This document shows, in pieces, positions 14,218 to 34,161 of a stretch of 39,716 bases of DNA. Made by a program: the position numbers and the translations under genes. The notes beneath the pieces were generated by a model. That model was not told the origin of the DNA and searched no databases. It saw only the letters and a program-made list of their open reading frames with translations. Within the stretch, counting starts at the first letter, position 1. The number at the start of each line of letters is the position of its first letter. Source of the stretch: Candidatus Scatosoma sp. (GTDB lineage: Bacteria; Bacillota; Clostridia; Christensenellales; Borkfalkiaceae); contig JAZRBK010000188.1 of the NCBI GenBank assembly GCA_045635025.1, positions 1 to 39,716 of the forward strand, given 5' to 3'.

Positions 14218-14257
14218 GAGCATTAAAAGACTTTTCTTTCCTCGCGCGCACGCGCGG

Positions 14258-14501
14258 TTATTATTTTTTATGTGTATAATAATAGTAATAATAATAAGCA
14301 TTGTGGATAACTTCGGCAATTTTGGCACGATTTTTCTTTGTAATGTTCGGATAAATAGGGAAAAATGCCTAAAATACCCCCTAAAAAGTTATCCACATTT
14401 ATGCAAAGTTATCCACAATTTGAATAAAAAAGTGGTGAGTTATCCACATTTATGCACGAGTTATCCACAAGTTATCCACAAAATAGGGTGAGTTATCCAC
14501 A
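14258..14501. other. oriC-like element: AT-rich tract, a TAA/TAG triplet run, and seven exact DnaA boxes (TTATCCACA)
   Basis: Boxes lie at 14302-14310 (inverted) and at 14389-14397, 14409-14417, 14440-14448, 14461-14469, 14472-14480 and 14493-14501 (direct). Seven TAA/TAG triplets lie at 14277-14297, and the region is non-coding. Confidence 0.7.
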
Positions 14502-14613: not shown

Positions 14614-17600
14614 TTACTGCTTGTTTGTGAATACCTTTGCCTTGTTTGGTGCGCCGATATACCAAGTATAGTGAGGGAAGAAGTAATCGTTTTTGGCGAT
14701 AGTGAATTTTTGGGATAATCCGCTTTGTCCGCTTTCCATAATTGCAACTGCTTGCATAGTTTCTCTTATATCGGGGGAAAGCCCCTCTATCCAAGACATA
14801 TCGACCACGATTTTGTTGCCGCTTGTTGTGATAATTGCAGGGTGGTCTAAATCTTCCTCGTATTCGGCTAAAATGCTGTCAACGCTTATATAGCCGTTTG
14901 TCATCTTATTCACCTTTGACGAAAGCACAACGACCTTTGCTTTGTTCTTCTTGTTATTATCAAAGAAGAACGGGGAAATAACAAACTCATCGCTTTCGGC
15001 AATTTGAATAAGGTTGTAATTGAAATGCAGGGTTTCTCGGCAGTCCTTAAACAAGACAATGCTTTTCCCGATATTTGCCGTGTTGGAAACAATGGGGGTT
15101 GCGTTGCCCTGCGTATAGCGCGGGACATACTCTTGTTTTTCATCGTCCCAAGCGAAGTAAACATATCCGTCCCATTCGCCGAGTTCATTATTCCAAATTT
15201 GCGCGCCAACATAAGAGCCGCTAACGCGCCTATAAAGGTAATAAGCCAAAATCGCGGTATTATCATTGTTTATTACGCCCATAAGGATAACATCTCCGTT
15301 GGCGGCGGCATTTCCCGTTGCCGCAAGTATCTTTCCGTCGAGGTATGCGGTTAAATTCGCTTGCCCTGCTTCAAAACTTGACAATATATCGTTAGAGGTT
15401 GCCGTTAAGTAAGTGAATGATATAACGCTGTAAACAACACCTGCGGACGGAGTTATCGGCGTAACGCCGTCGTGGGGGACAAGCCAAGAGGACGAGAACA
15501 GCGTGCTATCCGTCTTTATATCCACTTCCATTTCAACGGAGTTCTCGCCAAAAAGCGGGGACTTTGGCAGGGAGCGGATTTGGTCGGACGAAAGTTTTAA
15601 TTCGCCATAAAGGGCAAAATCAAGCAACCCTGCCTTGCCGTACTTATCGCAATATTGCACCGCGCGCATTGTGCGGTAGGCATTATCGGCGGTGGGGTTG
15701 TCTTGCATAGTAATTTCCGCGCTCACTTCGTCGCCTGCGGAAAAGTTATCGACCATATCCCATTCATAGGTCAAAGTACCGCCGCTTTGGTAAGCGTTGA
15801 CGGGGTGGAGCATATCTTTTGACAGGCTACGCACGCCAAAAGTCCCCTCGTTCCCGTTGTCCTTATCACCACGGAAACTTGACAAAGCCCATTTCAAATA
15901 AGTGCTTCCATTCCCGAAGATAAGATTTTTGGTATGCTCAATATCCGCAATAAACCCTGCGCTTTCGTCAATTTCGTCGCTTTTTGTCGTGACGAGCAAA
16001 TAGTCATTGATAGCAACCTCGCGGTCTATCGCGCTTTGTTCGCTTATCTCAAAGAAACGAGGCTCGGACGGAATACCGATAATTGCGGAAAGTTGGTTGT
16101 AGTCCTTTGAGTATTCAACTACGCTTTCTATATGGTCGGGGTAGAAAATATGCGTAATTTTTGCGATATAATAAAGCCCCTCCCCTATCCAACAAAGGTC
16201 GCCCTTATGGAGAAGTTGTGCCAAGTGGTCGCACCATTGAGTTTCTTTGTAATTGTTGTTGCCCGTGCGAATGAGTTTACCAAACACATTTCTACCAAAC
16301 GCCACGCTATCAACAAGCGTGTCCTGTTGGTTGTTAAATTGCTTATGCGTCGGAACGCGGTCATATTTGCTTGCCAAAATGTAGGAACGCAAATCGGGGC
16401 GCGCGTGTTCAAGACGAGCCGTGTCTTTCGTGCGATATTCGACCTCAAAGATAAAATCATTCACTTTGACATCATACCACGGGCTATCCGAAATTTGCCA
16501 CCCCGACATTCCTGTGATATAAGGAATATTAAAGTTTTGGTCTAAAAATGCCGTTATGATGATTTTCTTAAAGGCATAATCGTGATATGGGTTTGTAACA
16601 GGCGTGGGGAGTTGATAATCGCCGCCCTTAATGACCTTATCACCAAGTTCATAATACATAGCAATACCTTTGTTCGGAACATCGTTTGCACGCACCGACA
16701 AAAGCCCGTAAATGTTCTTTTCGTAAATGTACGGCGTAAGGTCGGCGGTGTCCCCTTTGTGAATATCATAAGTGTCGTCACCAACTGTAATAGAATAGTT
16801 ATTGTCCGCGACCACGGTCAAGTTAAGCAATTCTATAATCGGCTTGCTCACAATGATACACGCTTCGTCATTATCGACAACAAAGTTCTCACTTTCGGTC
16901 TTTGCGACAACCTTTTCCTTAATGCTTCCACCGAGTTGTACAAGGTTATCCACATAAGAGGAACACGCGGAAATGTAATCGTCAACCTTTCGGAAGTTCA
17001 TAACGCTTGAACGAGTGTTGGAATTTTCGGTTGCGTCCATTCCGCCCAACTTCGTGAAAGTGATTTCGTATTTTTCGTCTTTGCCAAAACTAACTTCGGG
17101 GATAGCGTGACAATACTTTCCGACTTCAAGCATAATCTCCCAAAGGTTCTTTTGGTGGAAAAAGGTTTCATTCACGCGCGTTAGGCGCAGGGTGTCTTTG
17201 GAAATTTTATCACCGCCGCCCTCGCCTACATAGAAAGGATAAGGCGCGTTGTTTGCGTCAAGGTCAGCCGCGCTTGTCCCGTCCTCTTTGAAATAGGTAT
17301 CGGAATTTGCAATAGCCTTTATAAGCATATTATATGCGGTATATTCAACGCCTTGTTCAAGAACGGCGGTTTCGTTTCCGCTTGCATAGGTTGTAAAAGC
17401 GCAAGTTACACCCGAAGTGGAAATACCGCGCGTTGTGCAACTTACAGTTTCAGCGTATTGGTCTATAAACGCGCCAATACCGCCCGTAACTCTACGCGTT
17501 TTCTTTTTCGTATAATTAAAGGTAGTATAGTTGTCGGGTGTATTTGCACCAACAACATATTTCCCCACGCTATCGGAAAAGCCAATAAGCGGCATTGACG

Positions 17601-27234: not shown

Positions 27235-28722
27235 TTATTTTATCATTCCCGCCGCGCGCTTTATATCGTCATAATGCGCCTTTCGGGACGGGAAAGATAG
27301 GTTGTAACAGTTGCTATAATACGGGATAAGTCCGTATTCCAATGCGTCGCACAAGTCATTCTTAATCGCGGGGTCAAGTTTCCCGTTCTTATACCTTTGC
27401 GCTTCGATTTCGTGGCGCAGGCGGTGGGTGTTCGGGTTGCCCCTCCAATCATATTTGCCCTCGTTGAGAACGGTAAGGACGCTATAAGCAAAGGCGTTTT
27501 TGATAATGCCCAAGTTTATATCCTTTTTCTTCTTCGTAAAGGCAAAAATGCTGATGTTCTTCCACAATTCCGTGTTTGGGCTTGTGCGCTTTAAGTGCCT
27601 TAACTGCGCGATAAACGGGCTTGCCGCGCCGTCCACCGATAACGCAACTTTGACATAATTATACACCAAGCCGTAATTATTGTCAAGATATAAGAGGAAG
27701 TCGTCAAGCATTTCGCATTGTTCGGTCGGTGCAAGCGTCCTGTTCGTTTCTTCGGGGTCGTCATAGCAAACCTCCAATGTTTGCGCCGTTCCGTCGTCCA
27801 ATATCGCCACAGGGACTATGGCAAAGGTATCGTTTGCCGTCGCGTGGTCGATACCGACAATAATGTTTGTAATATACCGCTTTTCAAGTTCGGGCTTTGT
27901 CTTGTAATGCCTGTTCCTGTCGAATTGCGGGAAAACCACCGAAGATGTGTTGGCGTGAATATCGCCCAAGTAAACCCTCCGATATTCCGTGGGATTCGTC
28001 CTTTGCATATCCAAAATATGCTTTTTCGCCTCGTCATTGAGCAAATGCCAAATATGGTGGCAGTTCGCATAAATAACAAGCCACTCGTCGGACTTCTTCT
28101 TCGTTTCCGCATAGTCCACAAACCAATGCCCCACAGTTTCGTTGTTGCCGACGATAATGATTTTCGCGTGCTTTGACAACTGACGGACAAAGGTGATAAT
28201 GGACTGTTCGATAACATTCTCGTCCTTGTTCTTTTGCGCTTCCTCATAGAGCAACAAGGAAATGGGGTTGAGCAACTTTGTACTCCTCGTCCTTTGACCG
28301 CCCCTGCTATCGGTTATCGGGAAAAGCCTTGTGCAACCCTTTACGCCCCTGCGAAAAACGCCCTCATACGACTTCGGGATATAAAACTCCGCGCGGGGGT
28401 CGTCCTGCGATACTTCAAGCCCGCTGTTAAGCAAGAAAGAGTGAATTTCCTTTATGATACTGTCCTTAATTTCGGTAGAGGTCGCTTGACAAATAACGAC
28501 ATCTTCATCGGGGTAAGCGTTTATCGCGTCCCACCACGCCGCCACCAAAATGGAAGATTTACCGCTTGCACGACCGCTTGAAAGCACGAATTTGTCATAC
28601 TTCTTGTCCGTCCGCGCGTTCGGATAAAGGCTTAATGCGCTCTTATCAACTTTTCCCGTGAATATGGGCGAATAGATTTGAGGAATTATAAGGGTTTCCG
28701 CGTTGGTCTTAAATTCACTCAT
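27235..28722 (-). CDS. terL: Terminase large subunit
   Basis: 495 aa. Walker A-like SSGRASGKSS lies near the N-terminus. The gene follows and overlaps terS. Confidence 0.85.
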   Translation of the reverse strand: MSEFKTNAETLIIPQIYSPIFTGKVDKSALSLYPNARTDKKYDKFVLSSGRASGKSSILVAAWWDAINAYPDEDVVICQATSTEIKDSIIKEIHSFLLNSGLEVSQDDPRAEFYIPKSYEGVFRRGVKGCTRLFPITDSRGGQRTRSTKLLNPISLLLYEEAQKNKDENVIEQSIITFVRQLSKHAKIIIVGNNETVGHWFVDYAETKKKSDEWLVIYANCHHIWHLLNDEAKKHILDMQRTNPTEYRRVYLGDIHANTSSVVFPQFDRNRHYKTKPELEKRYITNIIVGIDHATANDTFAIVPVAILDDGTAQTLEVCYDDPEETNRTLAPTEQCEMLDDFLLYLDNNYGLVYNYVKVALSVDGAASPFIAQLRHLKRTSPNTELWKNISIFAFTKKKKDINLGIIKNAFAYSVLTVLNEGKYDWRGNPNTHRLRHEIEAQRYKNGKLDPAIKNDLCDALEYGLIPYYSNCYNLSFPSRKAHYDDIKRAAGMIK

Positions 28723-29425
28723 CGCTTGTTTCCTCGCTCAAATCCCCCTCAATGATGTTGCGCGGGTCGGCAAGGGCTTCGTGGTTCGCGCAGTCCACGA
28801 TTTTAATGGTTATGCTCCCCGCCTTTACTTCCCCGACCTTCAACATTTCGTTCATTCCGAGTGCCTTATCCAATTCAAAACGCGCGCGCATTTGCGTGGC
28901 GACATCGGTGATTTCCTCTACCTTTTCCCCCGTGAGGTTATGGTCGCGGTCATAAGTCTTTGTTTTTTTAATGGTTTTGGTCTTGCCACTTGCAATATCT
29001 CGGAAGAACTGAATACGCTTTGCCTGCTCCGCGCTCATTTCCGCAAGGTCGAGTTTCGCCCCCGTTCCCTCAATTTCCGCAGGGACAATGGGTGTGGGCA
29101 ACAAGTCCCCCTCCGCTATCTCGTCAATCTTCTTTGAAACCTCGCTTTCGGGGTCATACGCGTCCGTGACATTCTTTTGCCCCCGAAGTGCCGCGACAAA
29201 CTCATCAAAGCGCGCAATATTCTTCGCCAAGTCATACGCGCTCTTTTTCGCGTTCTTGCTGTCAGTATATCCCGCCGCCACATACGCGGCTTTTTTGCTA
29301 AACCCCCCGTTTGCGTAGAACTTCACAAACCTTTGGTGCTTTTCGGGCAAGCGGTCAAAGTCCTCCTGCATTTCGGGCGTGAAGCAAATATACCTCTTAC
29401 CCCTTTCGGTTAACTTCTCGCTCAT
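28715..29425 (-). CDS. terS: Terminase small subunit (Terminase_2-like)
   Basis: RFVKFYANGGFSKKAAYVAAGYTDSKNAKKSAYDLAKN matches the HTH signature of small terminases. The start was trimmed to MSEKL, which has a GAGGTGG RBS. Confidence 0.75.
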   Translation of the reverse strand: MSEKLTERGKRYICFTPEMQEDFDRLPEKHQRFVKFYANGGFSKKAAYVAAGYTDSKNAKKSAYDLAKNIARFDEFVAALRGQKNVTDAYDPESEVSKKIDEIAEGDLLPTPIVPAEIEGTGAKLDLAEMSAEQAKRIQFFRDIASGKTKTIKKTKTYDRDHNLTGEKVEEITDVATQMRARFELDKALGMNEMLKVGEVKAGSITIKIVDCANHEALADPRNIIEGDLSEETSDE

Positions 29426-29981
29426 CGTTCCACCTCTTGAAAATATCCTTACTGCTGAAATACTGCGAAACAACCTTTAAGCACCTGTCCCCTTTCCCAA
29501 AAAGGAACGGATTAAGGCAAAGGCACTTCATTCCGAAATATCTTATTTGCCCCACAATGCCGCTATCGAGCAATTTCCGCCTTATCCTATAAAGCGTGGT
29601 ATGGTCGAACCCCATATCTTGCCCCAAATGCCGCCACACATACGGCTCGTTTATCCTCCATAAAATCCCCGTCCCGTCTTTAAGCCATTGAGCCAAGAAC
29701 GCCCCATAAAAATAAAGGTTCGGGTGATTTCGGAAAACCCCAAACGCTTTACCCACGGGAAAGCACTTCACATAATCCTTCCCATAATAAAACCCATACT
29801 CGCTCAACGGGTTGAGTTTCTTCTTGATAATCAACTGCTCGTCCTTATGCAAAACCTCCGTGCGCGTGATTTCCCCCGTCGCCCCGTCGATTTGCCGAAC
29901 AATGCTCTCCCCCGATTTTACGCTGTCCTCTCCAAAGCGGTAATTCCCCCCGCCTTCCCCGCGCCATTTCCTATAAGTCAC
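29397..29981 (-). CDS. Winged-helix DNA-binding protein, RepL-like; replication initiator or late regulator candidate; GTG start
   Basis: The layout R.ID..TGE......L, then YVKCF, then TTLYRIRRKLLDSGIV, then LCLNPFLFGKGD resembles Firmicute plasmid RepL as I recall it. It is the first gene after the consensus promoter at 30012-30040. Confidence 0.4.
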   Translation of the reverse strand: MTYRKWRGEGGGNYRFGEDSVKSGESIVRQIDGATGEITRTEVLHKDEQLIIKKKLNPLSEYGFYYGKDYVKCFPVGKAFGVFRNHPNLYFYGAFLAQWLKDGTGILWRINEPYVWRHLGQDMGFDHTTLYRIRRKLLDSGIVGQIRYFGMKCLCLNPFLFGKGDRCLKVVSQYFSSKDIFKRWNDEREVNRKG

Positions 29982-30011
29982 AAAAATTTCCCCCTTTTCG
30001 GTTCTACTCCC

Positions 30012-30040
30012 ATTATATCACAACCCCCTGTCCCTGTCAA
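30012..30040 (-). promoter_or_regulatory. Perfect consensus promoter: TTGACA, 17-nt spacer, TATAAT with TGn extension
   Basis: On the minus strand, TTGACA is at 30040-30035 and TATAAT at 30017-30012. Confidence 0.75.
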
Positions 30041-30663
30041 GTGCATAATTCCGTACACATTTTGCGTACAACTTTCCTCCCGCGCTACGCGTATCTAATA
30101 GGATTATGTAGTGAACCGATACTTCCGCTCCTACTCTACACTTATTTATAGTAATAACGCATACGCCCGCACGCGCCCACGCGACCCAACGAAAAAATTT
30201 TTGTCCCCCCGTCCCCCCACCGTCAAAAAATCCCACCTGCCCCCACCGCTTTTTGGAAAAGTAGTGCGGCGAAAAAAACGAGCCCCCTCAACCGCCCCGT
30301 CCCCTTTTCCCCTTCTACCCCCCGTCTTGGTAGGTTGGTGCGCCGTCCCCGTTCTCCCCCTCCTGCCCACGAGGTTGGTGGGTTGGTCAAGTATATTCTA
30401 CAAGTGGAATATCCCACAAGTTGGCGGCGGCTGTCACTACCGAAAGCAAGAAGGGCGGGGGCTTGGGCAAGGGGTGGGCGTTTTCCGCCCGTTTTCCGTC
30501 CGTTTTTGGTATGCTTTGGCAATAGCGATGTGGGGTGTTTGTTCGCAAATGGGCTTATTTTGGCTTACAAGGGGGCAAGGCGGGGCTTTTGGGTGTTTTT
30601 CGGGTGATTTATCGACGGCGGGCGTTTCGGGGCTTGTAGGGCAAAATACGAGGTCAAGCGGGC
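30041..30663. other. Large non-coding region with strand-switching G/C tracts, G-quadruplex motifs and short direct repeats (candidate ori, pac site or structured RNA)
   Basis: No credible ORF is present. C-tracts dominate the plus strand at 30200-30370 and G-tracts at 30440-30660. An 11-bp unit is repeated three times at 30479-30511, and aggttggtg occurs at 30332 and 30372. Confidence 0.5.
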
Positions 30664-30694
30664 AAAAGAAAAACCCCGCGCAAGGCGCGCGGGG
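30664..30694 (-). terminator. Rho-independent terminator ending the 32.6-30.7 kb operon
   Basis: The stem CCCCGCGC/GCGCGGGG (30674-30694) is followed by TTTTTCTTTT on the minus strand. Confidence 0.75.
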
Positions 30695-30717
30695 TTATCT
30701 TGTTCAGTCGTTGCGGT

Positions 30718-30900
30718 TTATTCTCCTTCATTGTTTGTTATCCTATATTTTTTGCGGTCGAGTTTTTCAAGTTCTTTTTCTAACGGTTCGCGTTCTTCGC
30801 AAACCGCAATCGCTTTCCACCTGTGCGAGTAGACGGGGAAACTATGGTTTCCCAAGATATTGGGTCTTGCGATGGTTTCTTTTCGTTCCAAAAAATACAT
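30718..30900 (-). CDS. Hypothetical protein (60 aa)
   Basis: ORF track; last gene before the terminator. Confidence 0.6.
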   Translation of the reverse strand: MYFLERKETIARPNILGNHSFPVYSHRWKAIAVCEEREPLEKELEKLDRKKYRITNNEGE

Positions 30901-30913
30901 ATTTGCCCCCGTT

Positions 30914-31222
30914 TCAGTATCTCATCGTCAAGTAAATGCAAAGGGCAATTTGCACGAGGGCAATTATTGCCGCTATGATAAAGTAGCCAAGACCACGGGC
31001 GGCGCGGGTGCTTCCGTTCGGGCGGCTGTCCTGCTGTCGGGCAAGGGCGGCGGCGTGGCGGCGTTTGGCGTTCAGTAGGCGCGTTTCGGCTTCGAGGCGG
31101 CGCGCCTCGTCAAGTTTCGCGCGGTTGATGTCGGGCGGTGCGGTCGGCTTGTCCTCGCCGTAAATTCGGCGGTACTCGTCGGGCGCGATTTTTCGCAGTT
31201 CGTCGGGCGTGAAGGTCGGCAT
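30914..31222 (-). CDS. Tail-anchored membrane protein (102 aa)
   Basis: ORF track; C-terminal TM segment GYFIIAAIIALVQIALCIYL. Confidence 0.7.
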   Translation of the reverse strand: MPTFTPDELRKIAPDEYRRIYGEDKPTAPPDINRAKLDEARRLEAETRLLNAKRRHAAALARQQDSRPNGSTRAARGLGYFIIAAIIALVQIALCIYLTMRY

Positions 31223-32958: not shown

Positions 32959-34161
32959 TTATTCAGCCGCTTTGAAGTTGTAGATAGGTTTCAGCATAGC
33001 CAAGATTTCGACGGTGTCTTTGACAAGTTCTACTATTTCCTCGCTCGGCTTGTAGGCAAACGGTGCTTCGTCGATAGTCGTTTCGTCCACGGTTGTCGAA
33101 TACACACCGCTCATAGTTTCTTTGAAGTCGGCAAGTTGAATTTCTTTTCTTGCCTGCGCCCTGCTCATAGAGCGACCTGCCCCGTGCGGCGCGCTGTTGT
33201 TCCATTCGGCGTTCCCTTTCCCAAAACCCAAAATATACCCGTCGCGCATATTAAGGGGGATAAGGACTTTTTCTCCTTCTTTTGCGCTTATTGCGCCCTT
33301 GCGAACGATACCGTCCTCGCCTATGTAGTTATGCAGGGTAGTAAAACCAACTTCCTCGATGATACCGAACGCAATAGATTGTCTTACTTCACAATACTTT
33401 GAGAGAATGGCGGCGGCTATCATTTTTCTATTATAGTCGGCAAATTTGCGGCAAATCTCAACATCGTGCAAATAGTCTTTCAGCAAGTCGCCCGTAAGGT
33501 AGGACAATTCTTTCGGGACGAGCGGCTTGCTTTTCTTATAGGCTTTTACGGCTTCCTCAATTTCAGTCGTTCTTCCCTCGCTCTTTAAGCGGTCAATAAC
33601 TTCCTGCACGCCGTCAAGTTTCATTTGTTTTTCCGCTTTCTTTTGGTAGATTTCGGCAACCTGCTTTCCGAGATTACGCGACCCCGTATGAATTACAAGG
33701 TATTTAGCGCCCCGCTCGTCAATGTCAAGTTCAATGAAGTGATTACCGCCGCCGAGCGTACCTGCGGAAGCGCAAAGCCATTCCCTGTTGCGGAGTTCGT
33801 CTTTGCATTTCAGCAAATCAATAAGTTGTCCCATACCCACGGACGGCTCTTTTTGCACATTTTTTCCCGACGGGACTTGCTCTTTTACAACCTTGTCAAA
33901 TCGTTCAAGGTCGATTTTGTCCTTTCCGAGCAAAACGCAAAGCATACCGCAATTCAAGTCAACGCCTACGATGTTGGGGCATAACTTGTCCCCAAGCGGC
34001 GCGGTAAAGCCGATTACGCACCCTGCTCCCGCGTGACAATCGGGCATAATGCGGATAGGTGCGTCGCCAAATATTTTCGTGTCGGCAAGCCGTTTTATTT
34101 GTTCAACGGCGGCTTCTTCCACATTGTCCGTAAAGATTTTCACATTGTCAAATTCTTTCAT
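32959..34161 (-). CDS. rtcB: RNA 3'-phosphate/5'-OH ligase RtcB
   Basis: 400 aa with the RtcB hallmark motifs MPDCHAGAGCVIG, GGGNHFIELD, HTGSRNLG, PLNMRDG and NSAPHGAGR. Confidence 0.9.
   Translation of the reverse strand: MKEFDNVKIFTDNVEEAAVEQIKRLADTKIFGDAPIRIMPDCHAGAGCVIGFTAPLGDKLCPNIVGVDLNCGMLCVLLGKDKIDLERFDKVVKEQVPSGKNVQKEPSVGMGQLIDLLKCKDELRNREWLCASAGTLGGGNHFIELDIDERGAKYLVIHTGSRNLGKQVAEIYQKKAEKQMKLDGVQEVIDRLKSEGRTTEIEEAVKAYKKSKPLVPKELSYLTGDLLKDYLHDVEICRKFADYNRKMIAAAILSKYCEVRQSIAFGIIEEVGFTTLHNYIGEDGIVRKGAISAKEGEKVLIPLNMRDGYILGFGKGNAEWNNSAPHGAGRSMSRAQARKEIQLADFKETMSGVYSTTVDETTIDEAPFAYKPSEEIVELVKDTVEILAMLKPIYNFKAAE

Follow-up and report, generated by a model that had tools for sequence, protein, structure and literature searches.

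The 736-bp stretch at positions 29982-30717 of the DNA analysed here (contig JAZRBK010000188.1, a 39.7-kb phage-like contig of 39,716 nt, taken at its full length and hereafter called the window) carries no recognisable gene and precedes the genes for the small and large terminase subunits (TerS and TerL). We regard this stretch as a composite operon boundary, with transcription signals on its outside and a cis-acting DNA element on its inside, and, by analogy with phages SPP1 and SF6, we suggest that the inner element is quite possibly (if short of probably) a pac-like packaging-recognition region of an SPP1/SF6-like terminase that shares the operon boundary. An earlier sequence-only reading of this DNA had offered three identities for the stretch (an iteron-type origin, a packaging or terminus region, and a large structured RNA), among which a packaging region appears, with the same reservation, to fit best, given the position by TerS, the types of the two terminase subunits, the periodicity of the DNA and a set of G-run/T-run/G-run elements. 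Functions in packaging, in transcription insulation, in replication initiation and as an RNA are not mutually exclusive within the 736-bp region.

Nearly all genes of the window lie on the minus strand, and in gene sense (from high to low coordinates) they start with a block composed of a Sak-like annealing protein, an exonuclease, a GIY-YIG protein, a single-stranded DNA-binding protein (SSB) and an RtcB ligase, which is followed by small genes, the 736-bp stretch, the gene for a 194-aa winged-helix protein, TerS, TerL, the portal and the structural genes. The stretch is the sole clear operon boundary beside the packaging genes of the window, and it lies, as had been claimed, upstream of the packaging operon (winged-helix protein, TerS and TerL).

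A conserved gene-free module upstream of TerS

TerL was found to have 335 homologues (E <= 1e-30), many of those listed being located on contigs of 35-40 kb, and some of the sample labels (GAIO21, TONG22) may denote animal-gut metagenomes. Ten further lineages were compared with the window (loci L001/L002, L003, L004, L005/L006, L007, L008-L012, L013, L014, L016/L017, L018-L025, L026 and L027), and in 11/11 lineages a gene-free module of 0.6-1.2 kb was observed in the same position: it separates the terminase genes from the last gene upstream and adjoins either TerS or the winged-helix gene together with TerS. The 194-aa gene is missing from three of the lineages (L016, L018 and L027); in these the module is kept and the gap abuts TerS. 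The layout outlasts sequence similarity among lineages: in gene sense, a terminator is succeeded by a G-poor arm (the C-arm), by lineage-specific direct repeats, by a purine/G-rich arm (the G-arm) and finally by a promoter (with a CT-rich tract often found 3' of the C-arm), and L014, L016 and L018 share no alignable sequence with the window. From these comparisons we consider that the gap upstream of TerS is a conserved module and a consistent feature of a sizeable uncultivated phage family, and the lesson for annotation is that, whichever reading of its function holds, a large 'empty' gap at this place represents in this phage group a conserved functional module.

As far as similarity searches indicate, a close counterpart of the module is absent from cultured phages and plasmids: blastn of the 736-bp region against phages and plasmids returned no match, and neither did tblastn of the winged-helix protein and TerS against cultured phages. 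The phage lineage as such is remote from cultured phages (TerL <=24% identity, with TerS remotely related too). Two of the lineages devoid of the 194-aa gene carry further repeats of their own, namely a perfect or near-perfect direct repeat of 16-18 nt with one copy in the C-arm and the other within or past the G-arm (CAAATTCTCCACAATTCC in L018:2587-3809, copies 575 nt apart; CGATAAAATAyTyGAG in L016:2998-3745, copies 513 nt apart). The module of L018 is moreover followed by ~430 nt of further gene-free sequence before TerS, with three GTAnAAGCGAAAAAAG repeats.

The non-coding status attributed to 29982-30717 by the sequence-only reading is upheld by the behaviour of its reading frames. Stop-free frames are numerous in the stretch, one of them being a 274-codon plus-strand open reading frame without match in Pfam or PHROG, and a coding reading of this or of any other stop-free frame was rejected, as no family is matched and the frame is not kept in the nearest relative: the alignment with L001 is interrupted by indels of 25, 14, 13, 2 and 1 nt, and shared peptides change frame. 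With every frame broken by indels, an alternative genetic code cannot rescue a gene.

A long, conserved and non-coding stretch might alternatively be transcribed into a large structured RNA (or a small RNA pair), all the more as the C-rich and G-rich halves of one strand can pair in the minimum-free-energy fold and as a small hairpin at 30472-30490 is conserved (with another stem in L003). We hold this to be very improbable, and the structured RNA put forward by the sequence-only reading gains no support from the following results. No Rfam 15 family (including ROOL, GOLLD and HEARO) reached its gathering threshold in the whole window, and a permissive scan (E <= 10) yielded terminator look-alikes only in the region; the folding energy is no better than that of dinucleotide shuffles (z = -0.49 for the minus and +0.87 for the plus strand); and the consensus fold of five lineages (RNAalifold, -39.9 kcal/mol over 600 columns) contains many broken pairs and an unfavourable covariation term (+3.0 kcal/mol). 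Moreover, pairing of the arms sets A-runs against A-runs, no conserved promoter is present inside the module on either strand, and the sequence diverges fully between lineages, with composition alone being kept. On the grounds of the same z-scores and consensus fold, a giant hairpin between the arms was rejected as well.

Architecture of the inner element

On the plus strand C-tracts give way to G-tracts, as previously noticed, the GC skew (40-nt windows) being -0.2 to -0.7 over 30180-30360 and +0.2 to +0.55 over 30420-30640, with a zero crossing at ~30370-30420; runs of at least 4 C or G are 3-5 times denser in the region than in the rest of the window. Read in gene sense, the C-arm (30440..30660, minus strand) is an array in which an A-run and then (G)CCC(C) recur every 9.5 nt, and its composition amounts to ~37% C, 31% A, 17% G and 16% T. 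The alternation of G+C and A+T in this arm, with a period of 9.5-10 nt, stands out significantly from block shuffles (p <= 0.003 for L007, L008, L013 and the window), and in 6/6 relatives' loci of 10-13 kb (L007, L008, L013, L014, L016 and L018), even the three that do not align with the window, the C-arm is the single top-scoring 220-nt periodicity window. The nucleotide identity of the C-arm is 83% to L007 and 79% to L013, and the positions common to the window, L007 and L013 make up 88% of those in C-runs, 82% of those in A-runs and 64% of the others; the runs are thus better conserved than their spacers, which fits a role exerted at the level of DNA. The G-arm (30200..30370, minus strand) is made up of G-runs split by short A/T stretches (~45% G and 18% C in gene sense), and is present as a compositional feature in all relatives, with a sequence identity of only 53% in L013.

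Smaller repeats are embedded in both arms. A GGGCG/CGCCC hairpin, set within three A/T-tracts phased at 11-12 nt (30472..30511, plus strand), is kept in L007, L001 and L013 and has AAGGC/GCCTT in its place in L003; it coincides with an 11-bp unit said to be repeated three times at 30479-30511, of which two copies (30479 and 30490) are good and the third is degenerate. A 31-nt direct repeat of 74% identity (30309..30387, plus strand) holds both copies of AGGTTGGTG, a motif that had been located at 30332 and 30372 and that occurs at those two places only. The recurring GGGCAA(R) motifs are likewise present, though so common window-wide (27 plus-strand and 43 minus-strand copies) that their recurrence in the region carries little weight.

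The two G/C-tract strings that the sequence-only reading had quoted were both found at the coordinates given for them, and a pattern scan of the whole window (four runs of at least three G, loops of 1-7) detected only two canonical G-quadruplex (G4) motifs, one in the G-arm (30283-30323, minus strand) and one in the C-arm (30453-30478, plus strand). In the relatives' loci, 13/13 G4 motifs fall inside modules. The opposed arrangement of the motifs is therefore real in the window, but it is not kept in every relative (the sense-strand arm is without a G4 motif in L003, L008, L013, L014, L016 and L018, and L003 and L016 have none anywhere), so that G4 folding itself is probably not what selection keeps. 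Five contigs from different samples (L002, L005, L006, L024 and L025) start inside the G-arm, four of them in or beside a G-run, and two of the five are 18 kb long with starts within 1 nt of each other. The idea that contig ends stand for physical ends of the DNA was rejected: in sister assemblies the sequence continues past these spots, and the starts thus probably reflect a failure of coverage or assembly at G-tracts.

The point at which the skew switches (~40% GC) is occupied by direct repeats of the type ACTTGTnGnATAT(TCC), in 2.5 copies of 13-16 nt (30386..30421, minus strand). An imperfect inverted repeat had been described at this centre, which is better read as 2.5 direct repeats of the minus strand, namely ACTTGTGGGATATTCC, ACTTGTAGAATAT and ACTTGAC (from 30421 down to 30386). 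Beside them stands a GACAGCCGCCGCC box (30422..30436, minus strand) that is conserved in the window, L007, L001 and L013, and the nucleotide identity of the centre is 94% to L007 and 75% to L013. The repeat type ACTTGTnGAATATTC is shared by the window, L001, L007 (four copies) and L013; other central repeats are GTCGGGA units (L003, L004 and L008) and three 26-nt repeats in a ~16% GC centre (L016). The four copies of L007 are two copies of a 33-nt double unit: its central unit (a GGAnAGCCGCCGCC box and two ACTTGT repeats, L007:2195-2314) is tandemly duplicated at a 57-62-nt offset, the GACAGCCGCCGCC box having been duplicated along with the repeats, and repeat copy number consequently varies between near relatives.

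A further motif, in which a T-run is enclosed by two G-runs, was counted 17 times in the modules (7.25 kb) versus once outside them (105 kb). In the window, one G-run/T-run/G-run element is situated in the right arm (GGGGCTTTTGGGTGTTTTTCGGG, 30582..30604, plus strand, ~190 nt from the centre) and two in the left arm (GGGGGCAGGTGGGATTTTTTGACGGTGGGGGG and GGGGGGACAAAAATTTTTTCGTTGGG, 30185..30244, minus strand), the second of which includes an A5T6 junction. A gene-sense copy is found 177-231 nt upstream of the next start codon in 8/10 lineages, and an antisense-strand copy is found in the C-arm of the window, L007, L013 and L014; in these same four the inverted pair is equidistant from the central repeats (~+190 and ~-175 to -205 nt in the window). 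A Chi-like reading of GTTGGTGG and GCGCGTG was considered and, for want of host information, set aside.

A candidate packaging-recognition region

The junction between a terminator and a promoter by the terminase genes is the usual place of siphovirus cos and pac sites. The module occupies the position expected of an SPP1/SF6 pac, ending at the promoter of the operon for the winged-helix protein, TerS and TerL, and directly at TerS where the 194-aa gene is missing. TerS (28715..29428, minus strand) is predicted to have an N-terminal helix-turn-helix (HTH) domain of the Terminase_2 (SPP1/SF6) type: it matches phrog_51 (E = 1.4e-8), 4/8 members of its family match PF03592 (best E = 9.4e-5), and its matches among PDB profiles, weak as they are (E 0.007-0.5), are all small terminases (Pam5, 6w7t, 7joq and 2cmp/4zc3). 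TerL (27235..28722, minus strand) belongs to the Terminase_3 family, as an SPP1/SF6-type pac system would lead one to expect (PF04466, 34.4 bits versus a cut-off of 23.2), and PF04466 is also the precomputed Pfam match of most TerL homologues.

In SPP1, the 5' end of the TerS gene, the late promoters and a ribosome-binding site all overlap with pac, and sites bound by TerS flank the cut (PMC6316719). The pac DNA of SPP1/SF6 shows runs of 5-7 A/T interspersed with GC pairs, and it has been proposed that a ring of HTH domains spaced at about one helical turn selects pac and may switch the DNA between transcription and packaging (PMC4737164). The corresponding hallmark of bendable DNA (A/T runs alternating with G/C runs at about one helical turn) is present in the C-arm, the G-arm showing no significant periodicity.

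The 5' end of the TerS gene is itself conspicuous. Over 29204-29428 (its first 75-80 codons) nucleotide identity amounts to 96% with L007 and 94% with L013, and identity at 4-fold sites of the first 80 codons is 88% and 92%, respectively, as compared to 54% and 51% in TerL; the neighbouring 194-aa gene has 60-74%. Such conservation would be explained by a block of recent recombination or, alternatively, by a signal in the DNA of the TerS 5' end akin to SPP1 pacR or P22 pac. Furthermore, the module appears to track the N-terminal domain of TerS and not TerL: L013 resembles the window in its module and in its TerS N-terminus (92% protein identity) with a TerL at 66%, whereas L008 has a divergent module and TerS N-terminus (49%) with a TerL at 72%.

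The outer parts of the region are read as ordinary signals of an operon boundary, the strong intrinsic terminator shutting the block of replication and recombination genes and the consensus promoter, with GC-rich boxes upstream of it, opening the operon that runs from the winged-helix protein through TerS and TerL to the portal. On the assumption that the region serves packaging, the inner ~450 bp (C-arm, central repeats and G-arm) would act as a cis-acting DNA element, the arms of which would be selected and wrapped by TerS rings that display their N-terminal HTH domains about one helical turn apart, matching the A/T- and G/C-runs that alternate every 9.5-10 bp in one orientation. The arms would face each other, with the inverted G-run/T-run/G-run elements ~190 bp either side of the lineage-specific central repeats, and would thereby place TerL for a first cut in or near the centre, after which headful packaging would run towards the terminase and structural genes. 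An occupied G-arm, along with occupied boxes just ahead of the promoter, could tie packaging to late transcription in the way that has been proposed for SPP1, and part of the signal may reach into the 5' end of the TerS gene.

Set against the SPP1/SF6 pac (pacL-pacC-pacR), the module is thus alike in the type of its TerS (predicted Terminase_2 HTH) and TerL (Terminase_3), in a signal at the start of the late operon that overlaps or abuts the late promoter, in an alternation of A/T runs and G/C on the scale of one helical turn, in recognition sites on either side of a central cut region (here proposed) and in a possible extension into the TerS 5' coding sequence. It is unlike that pac in a composition that is strictly tied to the strand (A+C in the first arm, G+A in the second) and dense in G/C tracts, in having a dyad-symmetric G-run/T-run/G-run pair and, in the window, in the 194-aa gene inserted before TerS; there is no sequence similarity to SPP1, and TerS and TerL are <=24% identical to those of any cultured phage. 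The SPP1 pac region is also said to be shorter than the 450-1200-bp span seen here.

Several observations weigh against a packaging role. Known pac and cos regions measure ~200-300 bp, as opposed to 450-1200 bp in the present case. The argument is one of position, composition and analogy, and the strictly strand-specific composition (A+C-rich, then G+A-rich) is nothing that bending of double-stranded DNA needs and would suit a single-strand (RNA) readout equally. The match of the window's TerS to PF03592 (21 bits) falls under the cut-off of 26.1, the G-arm gave no significant periodicity in the shuffle test, and a 585-bp gene stands between module and TerS in the window. The A-run/C-run motif class is kept in L016 and L018, where the TerS N-terminus is ~30% identical, and a recognition site that coevolves with TerS would be expected to change more. 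L027 shows only a switch from T/C-rich to A/G-rich sequence and four dyad repeats, with neither G-runs nor periodicity, and with this lineage included the most general invariant is a sense strand that is 'G-poor, then C-poor'. Lastly, pac could lie in the 5' end of TerS instead, as in P22 or Sf6, and the high synonymous-site identity of that end could itself stem from recombinational mosaicism and not from selective constraint.

Two other packaging systems offer partial parallels. The pac1 element of herpesviruses comprises a T-rich run between G-runs and can form a G4 (PMC13595911); like the phage module, herpesvirus pac1/pac2 combine such a run and G4-forming potential with two elements that flank the cleavage position, and the herpesvirus terminase is homologous to phage terminases (PMC13595911). 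The likeness is one of pattern only and not of sequence homology, the architecture of the genomes is different (terminal 'a' sequences in herpesviruses), and the phage G4 motifs are not present in every arm. If the G-run/T-run/G-run elements were indeed packaging signals, they would link the packaging signals of phages to herpesvirus pac1.

In phage P1, pac consists of short repeat clusters on both sides of a central cleavage region, both of which are required for cutting. The module likewise has repeated elements on both sides of its centre; it differs in that P1 uses Dam-methylated TGATCR hexamers within 162 bp together with PacA/PacB, as opposed to units of A-run plus C-run extending over ~200 bp per arm.

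A bolder reading, which we regard as doubtful, holds that the dyad-symmetric, strand-asymmetric layout of tracts is itself the recognition principle, in that a tailed-phage terminase, or else some initiator, would read the strand-specific G/C tracts (maybe as G4 or opened DNA) and not the base sequence, making the module a phage counterpart of herpesvirus pac1/pac2 or a new kind of G-tract/R-loop bidirectional origin. Such recognition would explain why the layout was kept as the sequence, the DNA-binding domain of TerS and the central repeats diverged. Were the module a pac, it would be an unusually regular one; its strand-asymmetric tracts with their herpes-pac1-like elements are the truly unusual part. 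Returning to the packaging reading that we prefer, the family would supply a natural and very regular candidate substrate for the question of how small terminases pick viral DNA (approximately ten C-run/A-run units in one orientation with a spacing of 9.5-10 bp, a G-arm as their mirror image and central repeats that differ between lineages), and, as many variants of the module already exist in metagenomes, footprinting, cryo-EM and swap experiments would be straightforward.

Two further categories of site were considered and rejected. An HNH-type cos system was set aside, as the conserved ~100-aa protein upstream of the module is a small membrane protein with no HNH match, and a protelomerase (tel) site was set aside, as no protelomerase-sized gene was recognised.

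Transcription signals at the boundary

The strong terminator and the perfect consensus promoter named by the sequence-only reading both stand. The intrinsic terminator that closes the upstream operon (30664..30696, minus strand) has a stem of 11 pairs followed by the T-run TTTCTTTT (30672-30696) and then a conserved tail, TTTTTCTTTTGCCC. In the multi-lineage alignment it is identical in L007 and L013; L008 has another stem (CCCGCGA/TCGCGGG) that still pairs, with the same T-tail. In the anatomy common to the lineages the conserved tail of the terminator is TTTTTCTTTT. The sigma-70-type promoter of the operon for the winged-helix protein, TerS and TerL (30012..30040, minus strand, read from 30040 to 30012) consists of TTGACA, a 17-nt spacer and TATAAT, with 12/12 consensus matches and a TG, and its elements CTTGACAG and TAtAAT are invariant in the relatives. 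Two internal promoter candidates (GTGACA-18-GATATT at 30437 and TTGACG-18-AAAAAT at 30226) were discarded, their spacing or sequence not being kept in relatives.

Between promoter and G-arm the alignments reveal two conserved blocks. The distal one is the box TCGCGTGGGnGCGTGCGGGCG followed by TACTATAAAT (30141..30190, minus strand), with invariant or near-invariant columns, and the proximal one is a GC-rich dyad box, CCTATTAGATACGCGTAGCGCGGGAGG (30076..30102, minus strand), upstream of the -35 hexamer. The dyad box (ACGCGTAnnGCGCGGGAG) is present in every examined lineage that carries the winged-helix gene, and a comparable box was not seen by eye in L016 and L018, both of which are devoid of this gene; the restriction suggests that the box is a candidate operator to which the 194-aa protein may bind. 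The DNA pattern of the GC box was also searched in three collections, and none was found.

The adjacency of terminator and C-arm bears on a different explanation, according to which the module is a two-way transcription insulator, each arm being a Rho-utilisation (rut) site on the RNA that enters it. Read-through past the intrinsic terminator would yield 200 nt of A+C-rich, G-poor RNA (from the C-arm), antisense transcripts from the late operon would yield pyrimidine-rich RNA (the complement of the G-arm), and Rho, loading on either, would halt crossing of the module. Published rut descriptors (a C>G bubble of at least ~78 nt, spaced pyrimidine-C (YC) dimers and little structure) describe the C-arm and likewise the complement of the G-arm, both being long, unstructured, YC-rich stretches with C>G (PMC6144790). 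The C-arm, with 37% C versus 17% G over ~200 nt, goes far beyond the 78-nt C>G bubble that always led to Rho-dependent termination in vitro on templates of E. coli and Salmonella, and its C-runs recur every 9.5-10 nt, near the 57-nt six-site footprint of Rho (PMC6144790). In B. subtilis, rut sites are described as unstructured with U/C-rich anchor motifs (PMC12350095). Furthermore, the trait kept in all 11 lineages (L027 included) is composition, as would be expected of a signal defined by composition, and in most lineages the arm comes directly after the intrinsic terminator, which would make a tandem terminator.

We nevertheless judge an insulator to be unlikely. The terminator that precedes the arm is very strong, and little RNA should consequently reach the C-arm, and in a genome that is coded on one strand there is no known source of antisense transcription. 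Neither the central repeats nor the symmetric G-run/T-run/G-run pair, both needless for rut, would be explained, and nor would the conservation of runs and spacers well above synonymous-site identity. The role of Rho is smaller in Gram-positive hosts, and the style of the promoter and ribosome-binding site suggests such a host. As compared to known rut sites, the arm is alike in being a long, unstructured, YC-rich C>G stretch of the transcribed strand directly past an operon end, and unlike in following a strong intrinsic terminator, in being mirrored on the other strand and in its 9.5-nt period, which is shorter than the (YC)N9-13 spacing that defines rut motifs (PMC6144790). If the arms were Rho-loading sites after all, a phage with a probably Gram-positive host would be equipped with a two-way insulator that looks designed.

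The winged-helix protein and replication

The 194-aa protein (29397..29981, minus strand; GTG start, GGGGG ribosome-binding site), the gene of which overlaps at its end the start of TerS, is best described as a predicted winged-HTH (wHTH) protein of no finer class. No match reached threshold when Pfam, PHROGs, the PDB and cultured phages were searched with it, its lone Pfam match (DUF6669) being sub-threshold (17.5 bits versus a cut-off of 27). Its homologues number 4 among 5.8 billion clustered proteins, and a set of 1.84 billion representative proteins gave 13 matches; no relatives were returned from contig collections (viral, metagenome and genome) searched with the protein and its alignment. 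The AlphaFold2 model is too poor for a fold search (pLDDT 37), and an HTH with a beta-hairpin is placed at residues 116-156. Distant members of the family have sub-threshold matches to HTH_11, HTH_36, TrmB, RepL, Phage_rep_O and DnaD_N. The designation 'RepL-like' given to this neighbour by the sequence-only reading was not confirmed: no family was matched above threshold, and RepL was matched by a single distant relative at 17.9 bits versus a cut-off of 20.3.

Within the gene, the 3' half near the TerS start (29381-29740) has the strongest compositional periodicity of the window in the 8.5-11.5-nt range (period 8.75-9.0), and the same strong periodicity was found at the equivalent place in L013. 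The sequence TTGCCCCAnAATGCCGC occurs twice in this gene, 72 nt apart (~29549 and ~29621, plus strand).

The central repeats and the wHTH gene together raise the question of an origin of replication, in which a phage or host initiator would bind the direct repeats and open the duplex there, the outward G-rich strands marking lagging-strand templates or promoting R-loop/G4-assisted opening or priming, and the adjacent wHTH protein might be the initiator in those lineages that carry its gene. In line with this hypothesis, the central repeats are lineage-specific and variable in copy number (2.5 copies in the window, 4 in L007, three 26-nt copies in ~16% GC in L016), the skew has the polarity of an origin (on either strand it goes from negative to positive), the sub-threshold matches of distant wHTH members include HTH domains of initiators (HTH_36, RepL, Phage_rep_O and DnaD_N), and the window has no other recognisable phage gene for an initiator, a helicase or a primase. 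Iteron origins (lambda ori, plasmid iteron replicons and RepL plasmids) share with the module such short, lineage-specific, copy-variable direct repeats by a winged-helix gene.

An origin in the module is nonetheless distinctly unlikely in our view. The module is kept in L016, L018 and L027 in spite of their having no wHTH gene, the recognition-helix region of the protein does not vary in step with the type of central repeat, matches to Rep families stay below threshold, and translational linkage to TerS is an odd place for an initiator. The 13-16-nt repeats of the window lie in a centre that is free of DnaA boxes and not more than mildly AT-rich (40% GC over ~40 nt), and the region has no similarity to any plasmid. 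The differences from iteron origins are thus that membership of a Rep family could not be shown, that the gene is dispensable for the module in three lineages, and that the module of the window has no clear AT-rich unwinding element, with the DnaA boxes 16 kb away. For these reasons (no Rep family, a dispensable gene and a DnaA-box array elsewhere) the proposal of an iteron origin served by a RepL-like protein is not supported.

The textbook origin-like element of the window is situated elsewhere. Of the seven perfect TTATCCACA DnaA boxes that occur at 14302-14501, six (14389-14501) are on the plus strand and one, at 14302, is on the minus strand. They are adjoined by a 45-nt AT-rich tract (~14255-14300) and lie in a gap of 460 nt that separates the tape-measure gene from the tail gene after it; the array has a 10.75-nt periodicity, an eighth perfect TTATCCACA box is found at 16946, and with one mismatch allowed the window contains 22 boxes versus 7 expected by chance. 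From its sequence, 14255-14501 looks like a DnaA-dependent origin or a DnaA sink, and we consider the array a better origin candidate than the 736-bp module. Integrase, helicase, primase and polymerase genes were not recognised in the window.

Neighbouring genes

A conserved protein of ~100 aa with a C-terminal membrane helix is encoded 5' of the module in most lineages, and extra lineage-specific genes are found between it and the terminator (encoding 60 aa in the window, 118 aa in L013 and 228 aa in L008). The stretch concerned (30718-31222 in the window; L007:1599-1913; L013:3267-3974; L008:3093-4110) looks like an insertion slot of the moron type. Pentapeptide-repeat proteins can mimic DNA, and a protein with such repeats and a DUF5758 domain (E = 8.7e-38) is encoded at 607-1197, for which an anti-defence or gyrase-related role is possible. 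Relatives of the L018 type have an ECF-like (extracytoplasmic function) sigma factor (Sigma70_r4_2) upstream (L018:668-1168). The RtcB RNA ligase gene of the window (32959-34161) is full-length (Pfam E = 2.7e-58; phrog_1075 E = 1e-120) and kept in at least L008, and its product may repair tRNA cleaved by the host.

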